Notes under the pieces: generated by a model | What the model was told of the DNA's origin: nothing | The model's database searches: none | Seen by the model: only the letters and a program-made list of their open reading frames with translations | Shown: in pieces, positions 2,212 through 22,179 of the stretch | How positions within the stretch are numbered: the stretch's first letter is position 1 | Layout of the letters: each line of letters begins with the position of its first letter | Assembly: GCA_965238075.1 (NCBI GenBank) | Contig: OZ250173.1 | Location: 1,376,001-1,440,000, forward strand | Direction of reading: 5' to 3' | From: Candidatus Entotheonellaceae bacterium | GTDB taxonomy: Bacteria > Tectomicrobia > Entotheonellia > Entotheonellales > Entotheonellaceae | DNA: 64,000 bases | Program-made: the position numbers and the translations under genes

Positions 2212-3503
2212 GGGTGCCTCGAAAAATAACTCGCTGGCGGACAGAAGTGGCGTGAATGGCGCTGTCGCGTCACTGGCGACAGAGAATGAACGGTGGTTTG
2301 CGCGGTGATGTCGCGTCCCGACAGGGGCCATGGCCCTTTCAAAGAGGGCATCCGGCACCCACCCCGCTGCACCCTTTACCCTGAATCCACCATCGACAAC
2401 CGTTGCAATTGAACCAGGCGCCGCATGTTGTAGGCGAGGTTCTTAAGACCTAATCCGCGCCCGCGCCCGTACAAGCCCGATGCTGCGAACCAACGTCCCA
2501 CCCATGTCGTTGCGCTGCGCGCCGAAGACGTGTTCCACCCGTGCCCGAAACCGTGAACGACTCTTGTTGCCCGCCTTCTCCCAATCCCGCAACGGGTGGT
2601 TGCGATAGCCCTTGCGATGTATCCGACTTGTCAAACCCTTGGCCTTCACCTTCGCTTCAATGGCTTTCGACCGGTAGGCGCTGTCCGCCCAGACACCGCC
2701 TGCCGTGTTGTTCGGCGTCAGCAGGTCATCAACCGCTTGGCTGTCGTGGACCGCCGCGTCCGTCACCCGGTAACGCCGTATCAGCTTGTGCCGACGGTCG
2801 ATGTTGACATGATTCTTGTAGCCATAGTGGCTCTTGCCATGCTTCTTTGTCCAGCGCGCATCCGTATCCTTTTGCCGACGCTTGGCCGGCTTGTCGGCCC
2901 AGGCATCGGGTGTCTCACCCCGCTTGATCTGCTCATTGTCGTCACGACGATTGCGCTGGATGGGGACCGCCACAATCGAAGCATCAATGATCTGGCCACC
3001 CATTGCCTGGTAGCCCTGGCTTTTCAGGTAAGCGTCGAAATCCTCGAACAAGGCATCGATGAGGCCAGCCTGTGACAACTGCTCGCGGTAGAGCCACACC
3101 GTCTTGGCGTCCGGTACCTTGTCTTCGAGTGCCAGTCCCAGGAAGCGCACGAAGGAGAGGCGGTCGCGCATCTGATACTCGACCTGGTCATCCGACAGAT
3201 TGCACAGGGCGCACAGAATGATCGCTTTGAACATGACGATGGCGTCCCAGGGTTTGCACCCCGCATTAGACTTACGCTTGTCGGGTGGCTTGCGCCAGAC
3301 TTTCTCCAGGCGGTTCCTGAACGCTTCCCAAGCAACCAGCGCATTGATCCTTACTAATGGATCGGTTTTGGCATCCAAAGCGGCGTCGCGATTCTCGATA
3401 TCGAAAAAGCCCATCTGACCCATGCTCAACTCCCCCGGCTCTTTGGCAAATGTGTCTCAGTGATTCTAAACCAAGTGGGAGATGAGTATTATTAGAGATG
3501 CCC
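2212..3503 (-). mobile_element. IS5-family insertion sequence
   Basis: Contains an IS5 transposase. Imperfect terminal inverted repeats: gggtgcctcgaaaaa at 2212 versus gggcatctctaataa (reverse complement ending at 3503), 10/15 identical. No clear target duplication. Confidence 0.65.
2376..3429 (-). pseudogene. IS5-family transposase with a C-terminal frameshift
   Basis: Motifs MRDRLSF..FLGL, IIDASIV, DTDARWTKK, YGYKNH, WADSAY, RARVEHVF. The ORF stops at 2443 (RARIRS*), but the conserved GLKNLAYNMRRLVQL continues in a shifted frame to TAA at 2376. Confidence 0.8.
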
Positions 3504-8515: not shown

Positions 8516-8986
8516 TCATTGCGCTGCGATACGCATGACGACGTCCCACTCCTGCTGCGTCACCGGCTGCACCGACAGGCGGCTGCCCTTGCGGATCACC
8601 ATCATCGCTTCCAGACCGGGGATGTCCTTCAGCGCCGCTAAGGTGATGGGCGTCTTGAAGGTGCGCACGTAGCCGACGTCGACCATCAGCCAGGTCGGCT
8701 GCGCCGAGTCGCTCTTCGCGTCGTAATAACGGCTGTTAGGGTCGAAGGCGGTGTCGTCGGAATAAGCCTCGCGCACCACTTCGGCAACGCCGTAGATGCC
8801 CATGGGCTTGGCGTTGCTGTGGTAGAAGAGCACGCCGTCGCCGAGCCGCATGTCGTCGCGCATGAAATTGCGCGCCTGGTAGTTGCGCACCCCTTCCCAG
8901 GACGTCGAGCCGTCGCGCTGCAGGTCGCCGATCGAGTAGACGCTCGGCTCCGATTTCATCAGCCAGTAGCGTTTTGGTTCGGCCAT
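8516..8986 (-). CDS. EVE domain protein
   Basis: YWLMKSEP, WEGVRNYQARNFMR, VLFYHSN, SRLSVQPV. Confidence 0.92.
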   Translation of the reverse strand: MAEPKRYWLMKSEPSVYSIGDLQRDGSTSWEGVRNYQARNFMRDDMRLGDGVLFYHSNAKPMGIYGVAEVVREAYSDDTAFDPNSRYYDAKSDSAQPTWLMVDVGYVRTFKTPITLAALKDIPGLEAMMVIRKGSRLSVQPVTQQEWDVVMRIAAQ

Positions 8987-9032
8987 GAAGCCCCCTCCCC
9001 AATCTCTCCCTCGCACAGGAGGGGCATTTGGG

Positions 9033-9503
9033 CTATACGGCTGGAGCGCTGCTGTCCCGCACGCCCTGCACGGCGTCGGCGATGTCGGCCACGTCGAGCA
9101 CCATTTCCATCAGCGTCACCTGCTCCTCATACACCTCGGGCGACACCTGGCATTTGATCGCCTCCTCGGTGACGTGGTAGACCGGCAGCCCCAACGACGT
9201 GCCGGCCAAGGCGCCGGCCCACGAGGGATCGCCCTCGGTCACCGTCAGGGCGTACAGGCGGCTGCTCTCGGCGGTCGGCGTGCCCAGCACCACCACCATG
9301 TCCTCGCGCGGGTATTGCTCGGCCACCCGCTTGATCTCCTCCTGACCTTCCAGGTCAAGGGCGCCGGCGGCCGTTCAAACGAAACAATGGGTCACCTCCA
9401 GCACCACCTCGGCGCCGGCGCTCGTTGTGCATTGCGCGATGGCGCCGCCCTGGATGCCGTCGCGCTCGCCCAAGGCGATAACCTTCTTACCTTGCAGTTG
9501 CAT
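9033..9503 (-). CDS. grdA: Glycine/sarcosine/betaine reductase selenoprotein A, Sec at codon 43
   Basis: ATG 9503 with AAGGAG ribosome-binding site gives MQLQGKKVIALGERDGIQG...THCFV-[TGA 9375-9377]-TAAGALDLEGQ...TVTEGDPSWAGALAG..LGLPVYHV. Canonical GrdA CxxU motif; 156 aa on read-through. Confidence 0.92.
9341..9360 (-). promoter_or_regulatory. Putative SECIS hairpin of grdA
   Basis: mRNA reads ccu-UGACCU-gga-AGGUCA-gg, starting about 15 nt after the UGA, with G in the apical loop. Confidence 0.6.
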
Positions 9504-9537
9504 GATGAATCTCCTTTCGGGGTTGTCCGTTGGCGCC

Positions 9538-9744
9538 TAGAGCGCTTTCGGAGCAAGACGGTTTGCAGGCCGGGACTTTCCCCTCACCCCAACCCTCTCT
9601 CGCCGGGGGAGAGGGAGCAAAAACCCCCTCTCAGGGTAAAGTCAGCCTCTTGATCCCCTCCCCCCTCCGTGGCGGAGGGCCAGGGAGGGGGCGTATGAGC
9701 CGACCGGTATTTCCACCGGTGCAATCAGATACGTAAATGCTCTA
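9538..9744. mobile_element. MITE-like repeat, copy 1, between grdA and grdC
   Basis: Ends are TAGAGCGCTTTCGG...CGTAAATGCTCTA with internal ccctcaccccaaccctct...gagaggg palindromes. Collinear with the reverse complement of 18699-18884. Confidence 0.7.
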
Positions 9745-11190
9745 ATCGTTGCGCTCCAAAAGCAATGACACGCCGTCGGCCATCTGCGTCATACGGCCGA
9801 GGAACAAGCTGCCCTTGGCGAGCAGCAGCACGCGCTGCAGGTCGCCGCCGCGCAGGCCGTCCACGGCGTGGCCGAGAAAGGGCACCGCCGAGGCGATATG
9901 CCCCTGCGTGGGTGAAAAGCCGGGCATGCCGTGCGCGGCGACGAAATCCGGCACCTGCGCGCGGGTGATTTGCTTGCCCATCGCCGCCAGGCCCGCGATG
10001 ACGCGGTAGTTGAGGAGCGGCACGTTGCCGCTGCCCGCCGGCTCGGTGACCTCCGGGTTGTGCAACTCGGTGGCGTACTTGTCGATGTCGCCGAAGCTCA
10101 GCCCCAGGCGCTGCAGAGGCTCGCTGACGAGTTGCTCGAAGATGGCCTTCTGCGACGGCCCGGCGGCCACGGTGTGGCGGCCCAGGGAGTCCAGTCGGAG
10201 TCTCGGTGAAGCGCCGTCGTCGCCGCTGACCAGAATGGCTACCGCAGCCAGCACGTCCTCCAGAATGGGCTGGTCGTGCTGCACGTGGCCGCGGTACTTC
10301 ATGCCCAGTTTGGAAAGCGCGCACCCCCCAACCACGACAACGTGCGAAAACACCCGGGCGCTGACCAGCCCGCCGGCGATGGCCAGGGCGTGCAGCGGGC
10401 CGCAGCAGAAGCCCTTGATATCGACGCCGGTTGCTGCCTGGCAGCCGCTCATTTCCGCCACCGCCTTGGCCAGGTTGCCGCCGCCGCGCTGGTAGCGGTC
10501 GCCCACCGCCTCCTCGCCGCTATTGAGTACGTAGGGGATGTCCATCGGGTCGATGGGCAACTGCGCCAGCAGGGTGCGCATGGCCAGGACGGCGGTCGTC
10601 TTGCAGGCCAGATTTTCGAGCAGCACGTCGGCGGCGAGCGTGGCATCCACCTCATGCGCGGCATGGAAACAGCCGATGCGGGAACCGTCGCGCAGGAAGA
10701 GCGGCAGGGCGGGCATGTCGCCTGTCAACCGGGCATCAAGATCGGCCTGCGAAACGCCCTTGCCCAATTGCTCGAGGTCGGCCGGCGTGCACAGCGGATG
10801 GACGTCCAGCGCGGGGCGGATGGACTCGATGAAGCCCGTATCCAAACTTACGAGATTGAAAACGTCGGCGATTTTCAGCCAGCCGTAAAACTCCTCCTCC
10901 GGCATGATCTCGCCGTGCGGCCCCCAGCGCTCGCCGCAACCGGCGTGCCGGAACCATGGCGTCGGCAGGCTGGCGAGAGCGTCCGGGTGGATGGCGCCGA
11001 GAAAGGCCTGGTTGGGTGGGTAGGCCGCGGCGTCGGCGTAGCCGCGCAGGTGGGCTTGCAGGGTATCGGCCACCGCCGGGTCGCGGTCGATGTCGCGGCT
11101 GGGCTTGGAGCCGTAGCGTACCAGCCCGGGGGTGTGGGCCAGGAAGAATCGCACCCCCCGGATGACGGGCTGCGCTGTCATCTGCTGCAT
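9742..11190 (-). CDS. grdC: Glycine/sarcosine/betaine reductase component C, FabH-like subunit
   Basis: YPPNQAFLG, HEVDATLAADVLLENLACK, SGEEAVGDRYQRGGGNLAKAVAE, GFCCGP, KLGMK, YATELHNPEVTEPAGSGNVP, GMPGFSPTQGHIAS, KGSLFLGRMT. Confidence 0.9.
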   Translation of the reverse strand: MQQMTAQPVIRGVRFFLAHTPGLVRYGSKPSRDIDRDPAVADTLQAHLRGYADAAAYPPNQAFLGAIHPDALASLPTPWFRHAGCGERWGPHGEIMPEEEFYGWLKIADVFNLVSLDTGFIESIRPALDVHPLCTPADLEQLGKGVSQADLDARLTGDMPALPLFLRDGSRIGCFHAAHEVDATLAADVLLENLACKTTAVLAMRTLLAQLPIDPMDIPYVLNSGEEAVGDRYQRGGGNLAKAVAEMSGCQAATGVDIKGFCCGPLHALAIAGGLVSARVFSHVVVVGGCALSKLGMKYRGHVQHDQPILEDVLAAVAILVSGDDGASPRLRLDSLGRHTVAAGPSQKAIFEQLVSEPLQRLGLSFGDIDKYATELHNPEVTEPAGSGNVPLLNYRVIAGLAAMGKQITRAQVPDFVAAHGMPGFSPTQGHIASAVPFLGHAVDGLRGGDLQRVLLLAKGSLFLGRMTQMADGVSLLLERND

Positions 11191-11212
11191 GCGTGTTCCT
11201 CGGGCGGCGGGG

Positions 11213-12502
11213 TCAGTACTCGATACAACTCATGCTGGTAAAGCCGTAGTGGTCGTCGTGGCGCGGTGGCGGCGGCAGTTGCCCGGCGGCCGGCACGCGC
11301 TGGTCGCGCAGCGGGCCGATGTCCTTGTACTGCAGGCCGATGACCCGTTCCACCGGCGGCAGGTCAGGCACCTCCAGCGTGCGCGTCTTGAAGAAGCTGG
11401 TGCTGACGATGGCGTTGGCCTCGGGCAGCGGCTCCAGCATGGTCGGGGCGGCCTCGGTGGCGTCGTCCTCGCTGGTCAGGAAGACGGTCTTGATGCCCAG
11501 TTGCTCGCAAGCCTGAATGGTGCGGACGACCTCGATGAACTCGTTGCCGCCGGCGTCCCAGGTCACCATCGCGCCCTGCGCGCCCAGGAGCTTTGCCAGC
11601 TTCGCCGTCTGGTTGGCCATGAGTTGCTTTTCGTGCTGCGTGGTCCACTCGGTACGCAGCGTGATGACACCCAGGAAATTCCAGTCGACGCCGTGGCGGC
11701 GGTACAGGTCGAGCAGCACGGGGTTGTTGGCCACCGTCCACGACATGGCAAACGCCGTGCGGTACGGGCCGGTGAGGGCGCCGTCGAGGATTTCGTTGGG
11801 GTGCAGGAACCATGGCGGCGTCAGTTGGGTGAGGCCGTAGGTGGTGGTGCAGAACGCCGTCGGCGAGCCGGACATGGCCTGCGGCGAGTGCACGCACCAG
11901 ATGTAGATCACGTTAGGGAGGTCAGGGTCGACTACGCGCAGTTCGAACACTTCCTGCTGCGGCGGGGTGAGGTGGCGCGTCGCCGCCGCGACCTGATCGT
12001 TGACCACCAGAGCCGCCTTGTGCACGGCGTCGTTCTGGGCTTCGTTGCCGAGGCCGGGGTCGGGTTCGACGACCGCGCACAGGTGGATGAGTTGGCTCAG
12101 CGGGATGAGTTCCGACCACGGACCGGACATGTCGAGGTAGACTTCCACGAAGTCGCCGCCGGCGTCGTGCCAGTTGACGCTCGACACCTCGGTGATGCCC
12201 ATGCCGGAGAGGCGGTGCGTGCGGCCTTCGCCTACCGTGGTGATGGCGCGGCCAGCGGTGCCGGGGTAGATGACGCCGGGACCTTCCACCTTGATGCGCG
12301 GCTCGATGACATCGCGCACCGGCCAGATGCGGGCGGAGTCGCCGGGACAGGCGATGTCCAGATCGACGCTGGCGATGCGGGGGTCGGCGTGCACGGCTTC
12401 GATGACGGCGTCCTTATCGACCTGCAAATGGCCGTCGGCGTAGCGGGTTTCGGAGCCGAAGGTGATGCGCTCAACGGGGAAGGTGCCCATCTCAAGACGC
12501 AT
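11213..12502 (-). CDS. grdE: Glycine/sarcosine/betaine reductase component B subunit (GrdE/GrdG/GrdI family)
   Basis: MRLEMGTF, DIACPGDSARIWPVRDVIEPRIKV, VGEGRTHRLSG, HPNEILDGA, NNPVLLDLYRRHG..NFLGVI, CEQLGIKTV; overlaps the 3' end of grdB. Subfamily uncertain. Confidence 0.85.
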   Translation of the reverse strand: MRLEMGTFPVERITFGSETRYADGHLQVDKDAVIEAVHADPRIASVDLDIACPGDSARIWPVRDVIEPRIKVEGPGVIYPGTAGRAITTVGEGRTHRLSGMGITEVSSVNWHDAGGDFVEVYLDMSGPWSELIPLSQLIHLCAVVEPDPGLGNEAQNDAVHKAALVVNDQVAAATRHLTPPQQEVFELRVVDPDLPNVIYIWCVHSPQAMSGSPTAFCTTTYGLTQLTPPWFLHPNEILDGALTGPYRTAFAMSWTVANNPVLLDLYRRHGVDWNFLGVITLRTEWTTQHEKQLMANQTAKLAKLLGAQGAMVTWDAGGNEFIEVVRTIQACEQLGIKTVFLTSEDDATEAAPTMLEPLPEANAIVSTSFFKTRTLEVPDLPPVERVIGLQYKDIGPLRDQRVPAAGQLPPPPRHDDHYGFTSMSCIEY

Positions 12503-13841
12503 GCGCCACCTCCTGCTCCGGGGTCATTTCCAACGGGTCGAACAGCGTCGGGCCGGGCACCGGCGTGCAGATGGCGTCGAGGGCGGTGCGCACGATGCGC
12601 ATGCCGTAGGCGTAATCCTTCTCGGGGCCGAGGTTCGGGTCGCCGCACACGTGCTCGATGCGCGAGCCGCGGATGACGCGGACGGCGCCGGTGGTGAGGG
12701 CGAGGTCATAGATGGCGGAGATCATGCCGACGGGGATACCGGCGCGCTCGATTTCCTTGGCGATCGTTGCACCGCAACGATTGCAGGTGCCTCACGTGGC
12801 CACCAGGAGACAGCCGTCAACCCCGCTGTTGACGAGGTCCTGGGCGATGCTGCGGCCCAAGTCGCACGACATGGCGACCGGCGTGGCGACGCCCGGCAGC
12901 GCGTAGATGGAACTGAAGACGCCGCCGATTTGGCCGTCGGCTTCCAGGTCGCGCAGGAAGTTGAGGGGCAGGATGTAGTTGGGATTGGAATTGACGATAT
13001 GGTTGAAATAGCCGGCGTGGTACGCCTCCCAATCGGCGTCGGAGAGGCTTTGCAGCTCGGCGACCGAGTGGCGGTAATACCGGCTGGCGTTGGCGGCGAC
13101 CTGCTTGTCCGGGTTGCCCTTGCGCACCAGGCCGCCGGTGGTGACCATGGCGATGGTGGCTCGCGACAGATCAGTGACGGGCACGGCGGGCTCGACTTTT
13201 TCCGGCGCGTGGATGGGTACCTCGGTAACAAACGGCTGATCCTTGAGCTTGGCCAGCAGCATATCGAGGGCGCGCTGGTAGCCGGGGCGTTGACGGTCAT
13301 GCACGCGCCGCACGCCGCGCGGCATGTAGCCGTCGATCTCCGCCGGTCCGAGCGCCTCCCCGCGGCCCAGCTTGCCTGCCAGCCGCACCATGGCGGCCAG
13401 CGCCTGCGGCATGTCGGCGGACGTTTCGCCGGTCGGCACCATGACGACGTCCGGCCAGCCGCTCAGCGCCCCCGGATTGTCCGGGTGCATGCCGCTGATA
13501 GCCTTGATGCCCAGCGCCTGTGCCGTCTTGCAAACCTCGGCGCACGCCAGCCCGTAGCGCCCGGAGCCAAACGCCGGCCCCGCTACCAGGATGTCCGGCT
13601 TCAGCGCCTCCAGATGCCCCTTGATGGCGGCCACGGCCTCCGCTTCCCGCTCGTTGAAGTAGTTGTCGCCGCAGACCAGCGTGCCCACCACGCTGCCCGC
13701 GCCGCCCAGCGCCTGTTGCAGCGCCCGGCCCGCGCCTACGGGCTCGTTTTCGAGCGACACCCCAACGTTCGCCGCGTCCTCGCCGCCAATACCGCCAAAG
13801 AACTGATTCACGTAATGCACCACGCGCAACGGGCTGTCCAT
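12492..13841 (-). CDS. grdB: Glycine/sarcosine/betaine reductase selenoprotein B, Sec at codon 350
   Basis: VVHYVNQFFGGIGGED, CGDNYF, AGPAFGSGRYGLAC, VTTGGLV.KGNPD, then LLVAT-[TGA 12792-12794]-GTCNRCGATIAKEIERAGIP, in frame to the stop at 12492. Canonical UxxCxxC motif; 449 aa. Confidence 0.93.
12763..12781 (-). promoter_or_regulatory. Putative SECIS hairpin of grdB
   Basis: mRNA reads AUCGUUGC-ggu-GCAACGAU, a perfect 8-bp stem starting 10 nt after the UGA, with a G-containing loop. Confidence 0.65.
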
Positions 13842-17612: not shown

Positions 17613-18701
17613 ATGTCCCGCCCCAAGGCCCAAGACCTGATCGGCGTCGTTGAAAATCCGCCGGAGCACAGCAGCGCCGCGCAACCGGACGCCGTTGCCC
17701 TGCTTTTCGACGCCCAAGAACCGCCGCCCTTTCCCGAGATGAACATCTTTCCTCTGGAATGGCGAGTCGAAACGCCCCTGCTGCAACAGATTTACGACCA
17801 GGCCCGCACCCCCGGCTGGTCACCCCACACCCTGCCCTGGGACACCCTCAAGGCCGATGATTTCTCCCTCGACGAGCGCTACGCTATGGCCTACTGGTTC
17901 ACCCTGCTGTCGGTGTTCGACGGCTCCGGCCCGGCGGTGTTCTCGCGCGCCTTCATCCACACTTGGGAAACGCACCAGGAAGACCCGGTGCGCAAATGCT
18001 TTTTCTCCATCGTGCGCGATGAGGTGAACCACGAAGAAGTCTGCCAGCGCGCCATCCAGATCCTGACGCCCAACGGGCCGCTCGGTTACGAGCCCGAAAC
18101 GCCCCTCGGCCGCCTCGCCCGCAACAACGTCAAGTGGTATTACCACAACGGTTGCCGCTACTGGAGCGGCTTCAAGAGCGGGATCACGAGATTTCAGCTG
18201 CCGATTCTGTTTGCGTCGTTCCTGATGGGGGAGGTGGCGGCGGCGACGCTGTTCCACGGCATGTACCAGCGCACCACGATGCCGGCGCTCAAAGAGGCGT
18301 TCAAGATGATCGGCAAGGACGAGGCGCGCCATATGGCGATCTGCCTGGCCGTGCTGCGCAGCGTGCTGCCGCGCCTGTCCGACGAGCAGCGTGCCGTCAT
18401 CACCCGGCAGATTCGTGCCGGGTTCGTCTTTCTGTCGGGGATTCTGTACGTGCCGCCCACGGACTTCTGGGAGCTTGGCCCCACCTTCCGCCCCGCACAC
18501 CGCATGCTGGAAGAGGCGGCCCGCGCCGCCGGACTCGGCATCCTGACGGAGGACGAGCGGGCCGAGAACTGGCGCGCTGCGGTGCTGCAGCTGAAGGGCA
18601 TTCTGGAGCCGCACGGGGTGGAATTTCCGGCCCTGCCGGAGATCGGCGTCGATGGCAAGACCGTGGCGATTGACCCGCAGGACATCATCCCGGTGTTTTA
18701 G
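17613..18701 (+). CDS. Ferritin-like (diiron) domain protein
   Basis: Two ExxH motifs (RDEVNHEE, KDEARHM) plus intervening GEVAA; 10 nt after the hydrolase. Confidence 0.75.
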   Translation: MSRPKAQDLIGVVENPPEHSSAAQPDAVALLFDAQEPPPFPEMNIFPLEWRVETPLLQQIYDQARTPGWSPHTLPWDTLKADDFSLDERYAMAYWFTLLSVFDGSGPAVFSRAFIHTWETHQEDPVRKCFFSIVRDEVNHEEVCQRAIQILTPNGPLGYEPETPLGRLARNNVKWYYHNGCRYWSGFKSGITRFQLPILFASFLMGEVAAATLFHGMYQRTTMPALKEAFKMIGKDEARHMAICLAVLRSVLPRLSDEQRAVITRQIRAGFVFLSGILYVPPTDFWELGPTFRPAHRMLEEAARAAGLGILTEDERAENWRAAVLQLKGILEPHGVEFPALPEIGVDGKTVAIDPQDIIPVF

Positions 18702-20628: not shown

Positions 20629-22179
20629 TCAATTGTTGATCCATTCCTTCATGAACCGCTCGTAGCACTCGCGCTCACCGGGCATCTTCACCCAGCCGGC
20701 GAGGTGGCGGGCGGTAGCGAGGAGCAGGCGTTCCCGCGTGTGCGTCGAGTTGTTGCAATACTCTTCGAAGGTGGAGTGGGTGATCTTCTGATTATGCGGG
20801 TCGTCCTGGAACTTGCAGGCGGTGATGGCCACCGTCGCCATGTAGGATTTGCGGCAGGCGCCGGATCTCAGGTAGGCGTTGGCGATGGCGGTCGTGCGCG
20901 GCACGTCGAGCGCCAGAATCGCCTCGTCCAACTCGGTCAGCAGCTCGCTGACGGCGCGGCCCGAGAAGTCGAAGGGGGCGATTTCCTGCTCTATCACCGG
21001 TGTGGAAAGCGCGTTGCAGCGCGCCGAATCGTTGACGAAATTCGCCATCAGGTACAGCGCCCGCGGCTGGTACGGATTGTCGCTGGTGCGCAACCAGTAA
21101 TTAACCACGTTGCAGTAATCGAAGGCGTGCTGCGCGTTGGTGAATTGCCGCGCTACCGTGGTCCGCAGGATCAATTCGGCAGCACCGAGCTGGATGGTAT
21201 CCCCAAGGCTCTTCAGCGACTTGCCGGTGCGCAGGTGGTCGGTGATCAGGTTCCAGATAGTCTGGCCGTCGGCTTCCATGAGCAGCCGCACCATCTCCTC
21301 GCTCTCCTCCGGGGTGAGCGGTTCGCTGTTCGTTTGCTTGAGGCTCTTGCCGCCGTTCTCGAAGGCGTCGATGACGGTCACGCAGGCGGCGTCGTAGATC
21401 GAGTAATAAAGCGGCCCGATGGCCATGTCCGGCACGCCGATGTAGTACACGCCGTGCGCGCGCTCCCAGCCGATGAACTTGGCCAGATCCGTCGTCGCGC
21501 GGGCGCGCAACGCCTTGTGGCCGGTGTTGCGTGCCTTGCGGCCGATGATCGTGTCTTGCAGGTCGATAATGCCGAGAAAGAGTTGCTGATCCCGCAGCAG
21601 GGGCCGGGTCTGCTCGTCCGCCGCCAGGCCGAGATACAGGCCATAGGAGCGCTTCACGTCGCCGCTCATGGTGGCGATCATGTGCTCGTGCAGCCGCTCC
21701 TCCACCGATCCGCTGGTGACGATTGGCTCCTGATGCTCGTTCCACACCACCGGATCCTTGGCCGCGGGCGGCACCTCCAGCCCCTTCATCATGGCGTAGC
21801 GACCGGGGTACTGCCCGAGCAACTGGTTCCAGATATCGAGACCCGACGGGATGTACCAGACACTCTGCAGCAGCGGCAGCAGGCGATACGCCTCCGGCAC
21901 GTAGGACATGAGGCTCACCGAGGTGCGCAGGCCGAGAATCGTATGATCGTTGTTGATCAGCGTGATCTGGCCGTCGCGCACGTTGATATGGCTGGGCACT
22001 TGCACAAAGGGCGCCTCCGCCGCCGTTACTACGCTGAGCGCCTCGCCCACCGAGTGCCCGTGCCGGGCCACCATCTTGAAGAACAGATCGGTGGTGCGGG
22101 GTTGATCGCGCTCAAGAATGGCGTCGGTAAGTGCCTCAAAGCTGGGGTCCTGGCAAATCTCGTCTCGGGTCACTAGCAT
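20629..22179 (-). CDS. Hypothetical helical protein with four spaced His motifs
   Basis: 516-aa ORF with GGAGGG ribosome-binding site and host-like codon usage; motifs NNDHTIL, NTGHKAL, NAQHAFD, DDPHNQK. Confidence 0.75.
   Translation of the reverse strand: MLVTRDEICQDPSFEALTDAILERDQPRTTDLFFKMVARHGHSVGEALSVVTAAEAPFVQVPSHINVRDGQITLINNDHTILGLRTSVSLMSYVPEAYRLLPLLQSVWYIPSGLDIWNQLLGQYPGRYAMMKGLEVPPAAKDPVVWNEHQEPIVTSGSVEERLHEHMIATMSGDVKRSYGLYLGLAADEQTRPLLRDQQLFLGIIDLQDTIIGRKARNTGHKALRARATTDLAKFIGWERAHGVYYIGVPDMAIGPLYYSIYDAACVTVIDAFENGGKSLKQTNSEPLTPEESEEMVRLLMEADGQTIWNLITDHLRTGKSLKSLGDTIQLGAAELILRTTVARQFTNAQHAFDYCNVVNYWLRTSDNPYQPRALYLMANFVNDSARCNALSTPVIEQEIAPFDFSGRAVSELLTELDEAILALDVPRTTAIANAYLRSGACRKSYMATVAITACKFQDDPHNQKITHSTFEEYCNNSTHTRERLLLATARHLAGWVKMPGERECYERFMKEWINN

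Follow-up and report, generated by a model that had tools for sequence, protein, structure and literature searches.

A selenoprotein operon related to glycine reductase but without GrdD in a Candidatus Entotheonellaceae bacterium, and a possible route to acetyl-CoA

The closest described systems to the one reported here are glycine reductase, its sarcosine and betaine counterparts and fluoroacetate reductase. We compared these, and D-proline reductase, with an operon in a 64,000-nucleotide stretch of a Candidatus Entotheonellaceae genome (contig OZ250173.1, positions 1,376,001 to 1,440,000, hereafter the window). This operon, grdB-grdE-grdC-grdA, consists of four co-oriented minus-strand genes spanning 9033-13841 of the window, and by its sequence it belongs to no characterised substrate class. 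We consider it very probable that it encodes a functional reductase variant that works without GrdD and does not act on glycine.

The glycine reductase used as reference was that of Acetoanaerobium noterae (NZ_CP154629, gene order E-A-B-C-D, labelled by gene order and motif). Its A, B and C proteins are 41-47% identical to those of the window and its E is homologous, and both systems carry selenocysteine (Sec) in CxxU of A and in UxxCxxC of B. However, the window system lacks GrdD, the GrdC tail, the pyruvoyl Cys, TrxB, AckA and Pta; it has ATU instead of STU, it places B before E, and it scores 374 bits with the glycine model TIGR01917, whose cut-off is 602 bits. Sarcosine reductase GrdF/GrdG (Peptoclostridium acidaminophilum megaplasmid, NZ_CP007453) shows 38% identity in B and 33% in E, but GrdG keeps GNC, the window proteins fall on separate branches, and the sarcosine models NF040794 and NF040793 give 402 bits against a cut-off of 800 and 209 against 780. 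The betaine reductase GrdH/GrdI of Enterococcus gilvus pCR1A (trxB-trx-grdA-C-D-I-H-BCCT) likewise has an E subunit without the pyruvoyl Cys, and hence no Schiff base, and is the best mechanistic analogue for the protein B step. Its motif is GSFMPCSSK as compared with GPYRTAFA in the window, the window score with the betaine model NF040795 is 359 bits (cut-off 775), there is no grouping with GrdH/GrdI, and GrdD, TrxB and the BCCT transporter of that locus have no counterpart in or beside the window system. Fluoroacetate reductase FarE/FarB of Cloacibacillus porcorum is described with an unprocessed E and a non-amine leaving group (PMC10838667), which the window system may share, but FarB lacks the CxxC that window GrdB keeps as CNRC, the radical SAM gene and antiporter of the Far locus are missing here, and the FarE model NF053623 gives 121 bits (cut-off 675). 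For D-proline reductase PrdA/PrdB, which has a short PrdB and a long PrdA but neither an A nor a C component, the scores are 76 bits against 300 and 34 against 700. The features of the locus are as follows.

12492..13841, minus strand: grdB-like selenoprotein gene (protein B beta), 449 aa, with U350 in ATUGTCNRC where the references have STUGTCTRC.
12792..12794, minus strand: in-frame TGA, predicted Sec350 of GrdB, the sole in-frame TGA of grdB and kept in relatives.
12763..12781, minus strand: hairpin 3' of the grdB TGA resembling a selenocysteine insertion sequence (SECIS), predicted by folding, with a similar stem in relatives.
11213..12502, minus strand: grdE-like subunit gene (protein B alpha), 429 aa, with GPYR248 in place of the pyruvoyl-forming GNC242; it overlaps the end of grdB by 11 bp.
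9742..11190, minus strand: grdC of the GrdD-less type, 482 aa, predicted FabH/thiolase fold, invariant C262, E375 and H431, without the C-terminal helical tail.
9537..9741, no strand assigned: palindromic repeat of about 205 bp in the grdC-grdA spacer, resembling a miniature inverted-repeat transposable element; a passenger outside the system.
9033..9503, minus strand: grdA, selenoprotein carrier gene, 156 aa, C40-x-x-U43 (CFVU).
9375..9377, minus strand: in-frame TGA, predicted Sec43 of GrdA, kept in relatives.
9341..9359, minus strand: SECIS-like hairpin 3' of the grdA TGA, with the same stem in Tectomicrobia, Dehalococcoidia and one Desulfocapsaceae locus.

The original prediction had described four co-oriented grd genes in this interval, two of them broken at TGA, and the coordinates, family scores and conserved TGA codons bear it out. 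GrdC scored 605 bits with NF040746 (cut-off 450), GrdA 207 with NF040748 (cut-off 130), GrdB 422 with the general family model TIGR01918 (cut-off 65), and GrdE 263 with PF09338 (cut-off 22), while GrdB and GrdE lie far under the cut-offs of every substrate-specific NCBIfam model. The open reading frame (ORF) list made with translation table 11 interrupts grdB and grdA at in-frame TGAs. With overlapping loci counted, the Sec TGA is kept in 106 of 108 GrdA matches (the other two lie outside the motif used) and in 123 of 124 GrdB matches (one has TGT), and each TGA in the window is followed by a short hairpin with a G-containing loop, as predicted by folding. The Sec insertion machinery is complete in the genome, with selC (tRNA-Sec) present and selA, selB and selD over cut-off. 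Judged from these sequences, grdB and grdA are real selenoprotein genes. A pseudogene reading, which the prediction had tied to missing Sec machinery, is ruled out by that machinery, the conserved in-frame TGAs and the intact frames across phyla. In four RNA libraries from two studies, contigs cover the operon at about 96-99% identity, although contigs cannot show transcription; read depth falls upstream of grdB in two runs, which we did not count as evidence.

No match to GrdD was found with the NCBIfam model in the source genome (one contig, 3.35 Mb, 93% complete, 62% GC), and a six-frame search of it with our own profiles gave best E values of 0.16 for whole GrdD and 1.2 for the C-terminal Cys domain. 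These profiles were built from 28 GrdD sequences and recovered three held-out control loci at E 1e-20 to 1e-24. A GrdD located elsewhere, split, or reduced to a small Cys domain is ruled out by the two kinds of search. Among 17 Tectomicrobia genomes, 15 have GrdC and none has GrdD over the cut-off. The genome-level test was extended to 50 of 70 other loci (four of the 50 apparently represent the same genomes as in the Tectomicrobia set); GrdD was found in only one of these 50 genomes with a query-like GrdC, the Synergistota control, and weak NF040747 matches in 26 of the remaining 49 were at most 30 bits and confined to profile positions 109-228. In unbiased samples GrdC occurs in 14/351 Chloroflexota and 21/351 Desulfobacterota, and when GrdC-bearing genomes were tested, GrdD was found in 0/13 further Chloroflexota and 6/20 Desulfobacterota. 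In the Synergistota control, GrdC was over cut-off in 45 of 61 genomes and GrdD was present in all 45, directly after grdC in 25/25 loci and found by search in 20/20 more. This indicates that assembly gaps do not explain the GrdD-less pattern. The Lost City coverage tables agree with it: the grdC ortholog reaches 50 and the grdD ortholog peaks at 1.3 (PMC9469722), and of the 17 sample columns, 6 have no grdD coverage at all at grdC values of 3.6-50 (PMC9469722; KEGG Orthology names from PMC12827605).

Our survey of related neighbourhoods, judged by gene content, indicates that the GrdD-less form is widespread rather than local, which corrects the local reading of the original prediction. Of its description of a minimal set without grdD and trx, the absence of GrdD and TrxB holds genome-wide, but a single TrxA gene exists elsewhere in the genome. 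Some GrdD-less loci (L057, L059, L063, L066, L081, L082 and L085) keep the glycine-type pyruvoyl Cys in GrdE. GrdD-less loci with glycine-type GrdE belong to Syntrophorhabdus, Smithellaceae, Syntrophobacteraceae and Dehalococcoidales. This suggests that GrdD loss is independent of substrate type.

An unrooted tree built from 137 GrdC sequences has a single branch (support 100) that divides the 34 GrdD-partnered from the 103 GrdD-less proteins. FastTree gave this split, as did IQ-TREE once the tail columns had been removed; the sequence set excluded fragments, copies with frameshifts and four duplicate loci. A C-terminal tail of 31-40 aa with a helix-like pattern occurs in 33/33 unfused GrdD-partnered GrdCs, while 102 of 103 GrdD-less GrdCs end within 2-21 aa and the other one has an unrelated 58-aa tail. 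By hhalign (E 5e-5, probability 67%) the tail is similar to the helix at the N-terminus of GrdD, and a natural GrdC-GrdD fusion in Synergistota (L096:1495-3999) is without both helices; a GrdCD fusion also appears in the supplement of PMC9751293. Their co-occurrence suggests that the two helices may dock the subunits to each other.

The AlphaFold model of GrdC (predicted local distance difference test 93) matches FabH, OleA, PqsC and thiolases with Z of about 21-23 at an identity of only 11-20%. GrdC has in common with this superfamily the fold and the position of the catalytic Cys, Cys262 being aligned to the nucleophile of FabH, but differs in a large N-terminal insertion; the alignment with FabH of the source genome is uncertain outside residues 200-310, and its C-terminal half is of low confidence. 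Separate true FabH genes exist in that genome besides GrdC. Cys262, Glu375 and His431 are kept in at least 96% of both GrdD-less and GrdD-partnered GrdCs, and K29, K106, R232, Y233 and K298 are conserved residues gained in the GrdD-less proteins.

The pyruvoyl cofactor of Clostridioides difficile GrdE begins at residue 242 (PMC9908766). In the corresponding column the A. noterae reference has GNC242 and the window protein GPYR248, and GrdE without this Cys is probably unprocessed. The Arg248 motif occurs in 20 alignment rows, and GPYR in all 80 metagenome loci retained of 318 found; grdD was seen in none of these 80 within the available contig sequence, many contigs being short. In quick trees of both E (20 rows, support 100) and B (17 rows, support 98) the window proteins form a branch of their own, apart from the glycine-type, sarcosine and betaine references; no Far sequence was included. 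The prediction had made its case depend on the two subunits not nesting within a characterised substrate clade, and B and E indeed lie outside the glycine, sarcosine and betaine branches. PDB sequence searches with GrdB and GrdE gave no relative of solved structure, and among the close GrdB relatives searched there were no useful labelled references. An attempt to read the substrate from gene neighbours failed, the commonest family being present in only 9/80 loci, with trpEG, EVE, hpt and acylase genes as local neighbours. TctABC genes and a sigma-54 regulator precede genes of the window's B/E clade in two deltaproteobacterial loci. The invariant Arg and this tricarboxylate-type transporter weakly hint at a second acidic group on the substrate. 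The prediction had offered a different substrate or a different coupling to acetyl metabolism; each is separately supported, but the amine or onium compound it had in mind is not favoured in particular. In two loci of SAR202 type, UGSC-family genes lie downstream of genes of this clade (L046:2153-3829 and L047:2530-4206).

Two further B/E pairs were identified in the source genome (L001:10870-13661 and L002:9936-12568; C1:598869-601660 and 2595935-2598567), giving three pairs with one A and one C in total. In both, the TGA is present and the pyruvoyl Cys absent; one has TUGTGTRS with the CxxC lost, and the other belongs to the sister clade of that in the window. The nearest GrdC relatives, 90-95% identical, come from Candidatus Entotheonella sp. 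and other Tectomicrobia. Motifs of cytochrome c oxidase (COX1 HPEVY) and bd oxidase (CydA) were found in the source genome by pattern match only. AckA, Pta and PduL were not found there, so that acetyl phosphate would have no ordinary outlet, and an acetyl-CoA synthetase (ACS) motif is present. More widely, AckA was found in 2/17 Tectomicrobia and 12/45 other GrdD-less genomes, Pta/Ptb in 11/59 GrdD-less genomes, and PduL in 0/17 Tectomicrobia. No TrxB was over the cut-off in the source genome (best 46 vs 343 bits), and a ferredoxin:thioredoxin reductase catalytic subunit lies at L182:1477-1890 (source genome C1:1008118). A thioredoxin gene is the only frequent neighbour of the related loci (27/81).

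On these observations of gene content, residues and fold, we lean towards a GrdD-independent selenium reductase of the thioredoxin type acting on X-CH2-COO-, with GrdC passing the acetyl group to coenzyme A (CoA). Protein B (GrdB-Sec350 with unprocessed GrdE) would displace the leaving group X without a Schiff base, as may be expected by analogy with betaine and fluoroacetate reductases, and X might bear the second acidic group. The carboxymethyl group would then move to Sec43 of GrdA, as its homology and CxxU motif suggest. GrdC alone would cleave the selenoether, hold the acetyl group on Cys262 and hand it to CoA in the manner of thiolase-fold enzymes, yielding acetyl-CoA with no ATP; acetyl-CoA as the product is on balance probable. 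Oxidised GrdA could be re-reduced by TrxA and ferredoxin:thioredoxin reductase, whose genes are both present. The system would thereby serve a respiring heterotroph in assimilating carbon, not in Stickland ATP synthesis.

Several points weigh against transfer to CoA by GrdC alone. The clostridial acetyl-enzyme has reportedly been mapped to Cys359 of GrdD, in which case GrdC must take over the step of the lost subunit. The fold and Cys262 are common to GrdD-partnered GrdC, so that alone they are no sign of a new activity, and the gained basic residues may bind phosphate, acyl carrier protein (ACP) or GrdA, not CoA; CoA binding and the product are themselves inferred. The split in the GrdC tree is a single evolutionary event, and therefore the tail, the residues and the gene loss are not independent; the tree is also unrooted, and 18 of the 103 sequences were labelled GrdD-less from the locus only. 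About a quarter of GrdD-less genomes retain acetate kinase, and the neighbours point to no consistent substrate, as noted above. In addition, the oxygen sensitivity described for such selenol enzymes (PMC13688921) does not fit easily with an aerobic host.

Alternatively, GrdC alone might pass the acetyl group to phosphate or to water, and the resulting acetyl phosphate or free acetate would later be activated by acetyl-CoA synthetase. This would be compatible with the ACS motif in the source genome, with the AckA genes retained in 12/45 GrdD-less genomes, and with the gained basic residues, which could bind phosphate. However, the source genome and 15/17 Tectomicrobia lack AckA, the source genome lacks Pta, none of the 17 Tectomicrobia has PduL, and hydrolysis would waste the thioester. 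Thiolase-fold enzymes move acyl groups between thiols, which also counts against this route, and we regard it as unlikely. Another protein, such as housekeeping PlsX, ACP or an unrelated acyltransferase, might stand in for GrdD in trans: a search for GrdD homologues is blind to an unrelated protein, and PlsX is the nearest GrdD-like protein in the source genome. But plsX lies within a fatty-acid cluster (fabD, fabG, acpP and fabF by eye), the GrdD-type Cys domain was not found in the source genome with our profile, the only frequent neighbour is the thioredoxin gene, and the docking-like tail of GrdC has been lost rather than retained. A replacement partner is quite improbable.

The system might also run in reverse or serve repair, with acetyl-CoA giving carboxymethyl groups, or with carboxymethyl groups being stripped from damaged thiols and amines, or from haloacetates. 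In most aerobic lineages no transporter or catabolic gene adjoins the operon, and fluoroacetate is the substrate of one known B/E pair (PMC10838667), which would suit such a role; the TctABC importer and sigma-54 regulator preceding the same B/E clade in the two deltaproteobacterial loci point instead to an imported substrate, and three B/E pairs with one A and one C form a pattern of multi-substrate catabolism. We therefore hold this role to be very unlikely. Hardly credible, finally, are a decaying operon and a standard glycine, sarcosine or betaine reductase with a grdD that the assembly failed to capture. The genomes are metagenome-assembled genomes (MAGs) and the source genome is 93% complete, but the same search recovers grdD in every GrdC-bearing Synergistota genome, frames and Sec codons stay intact from phylum to phylum, GrdE has no pyruvoyl Cys, and B and E stand on their own branch.

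Extending the preferred reading of acetyl transfer to CoA, we tentatively propose, as conceivable rather than probable, a second class of Grd reductase in respiring and syntrophic bacteria (Tectomicrobia, SAR202 and other Chloroflexota, Binatia and many Desulfobacterota). In this class one thiolase-fold subunit would convert Se-carboxymethyl to acetyl-CoA without ATP, GrdD or acetyl phosphate, and the B/E pair of the window would cleave a di-acidic carboxymethyl compound common in soil and sea. Sulfoacetate, iminodiacetate-type opines, thio- or oxy-diacetate and S-carboxymethylcysteine are candidates, and naming any single one of them would probably be wrong.

No description of a GrdD-less Grd class was found in the open-access literature searched. 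In the Lost City preprint (10.1101/2022.01.25.477282) a cluster called 'GrdEBCA' appears, as does a distinct GrdB clade of SAR202, and the passages on the cluster read it as reduction to acetyl phosphate with no mention of GrdD; the MAG table of the published version (PMC9469722) has no grdD column. A review calls the thioester-forming step unexplained (PMC10298544). Genome papers take any grdABCE set as conversion of glycine to acetyl phosphate and ATP. Most sets outside Firmicutes and Synergistota examined here are without GrdD and many of their genomes without acetate kinase, and thus it is probably a mistake to apply the glycine/ATP reading to sponge symbionts, SAR202 and many syntrophs. 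With a protein C that naturally consists of one subunit, how GrdC and GrdD share the work can be tested directly. If correct, the proposal would add an unrecognised entry to acetyl-CoA, and GrdC would be the site of C-Se cleavage in every glycine reductase. For the design of the reductive glycine pathway, a way of turning a C2 acid into acetyl-CoA without ATP would be of interest, because Syntrophorhabdus, Smithellaceae and Syntrophobacteraceae combine glycine-type B/E with a GrdD-less GrdC.

The repeat of about 205 bp between grdC and grdA has 57 blastn matches in the genome, 11 of them at least 150 bp (itself counted). It is missing in some strains, contigs of two sequencing runs skip it, and the spacer is about 40 bp in the related loci L010, L011 and L013. 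Directly after grdA lies an EVE-domain gene (8516-9016, minus strand), an order seen in 10/81 loci, all of Tectomicrobia type. Elsewhere in the window there are a transposase-like ORF (2443-3429, minus strand; IS5 type by eye) and a 516-aa ORF (20629-22179, minus strand) that matches nothing in Pfam or NCBIfam at the thresholds applied. An AurF-like di-iron oxygenase gene (17613-18701, plus strand), barely over the Pfam cut-off, adjoins an alpha/beta hydrolase gene. Outside the window, by the plsX cluster, a short PrdB-like ORF pair interrupted by a stop was identified at C1:2325425-2326432, which is possibly another selenoprotein.

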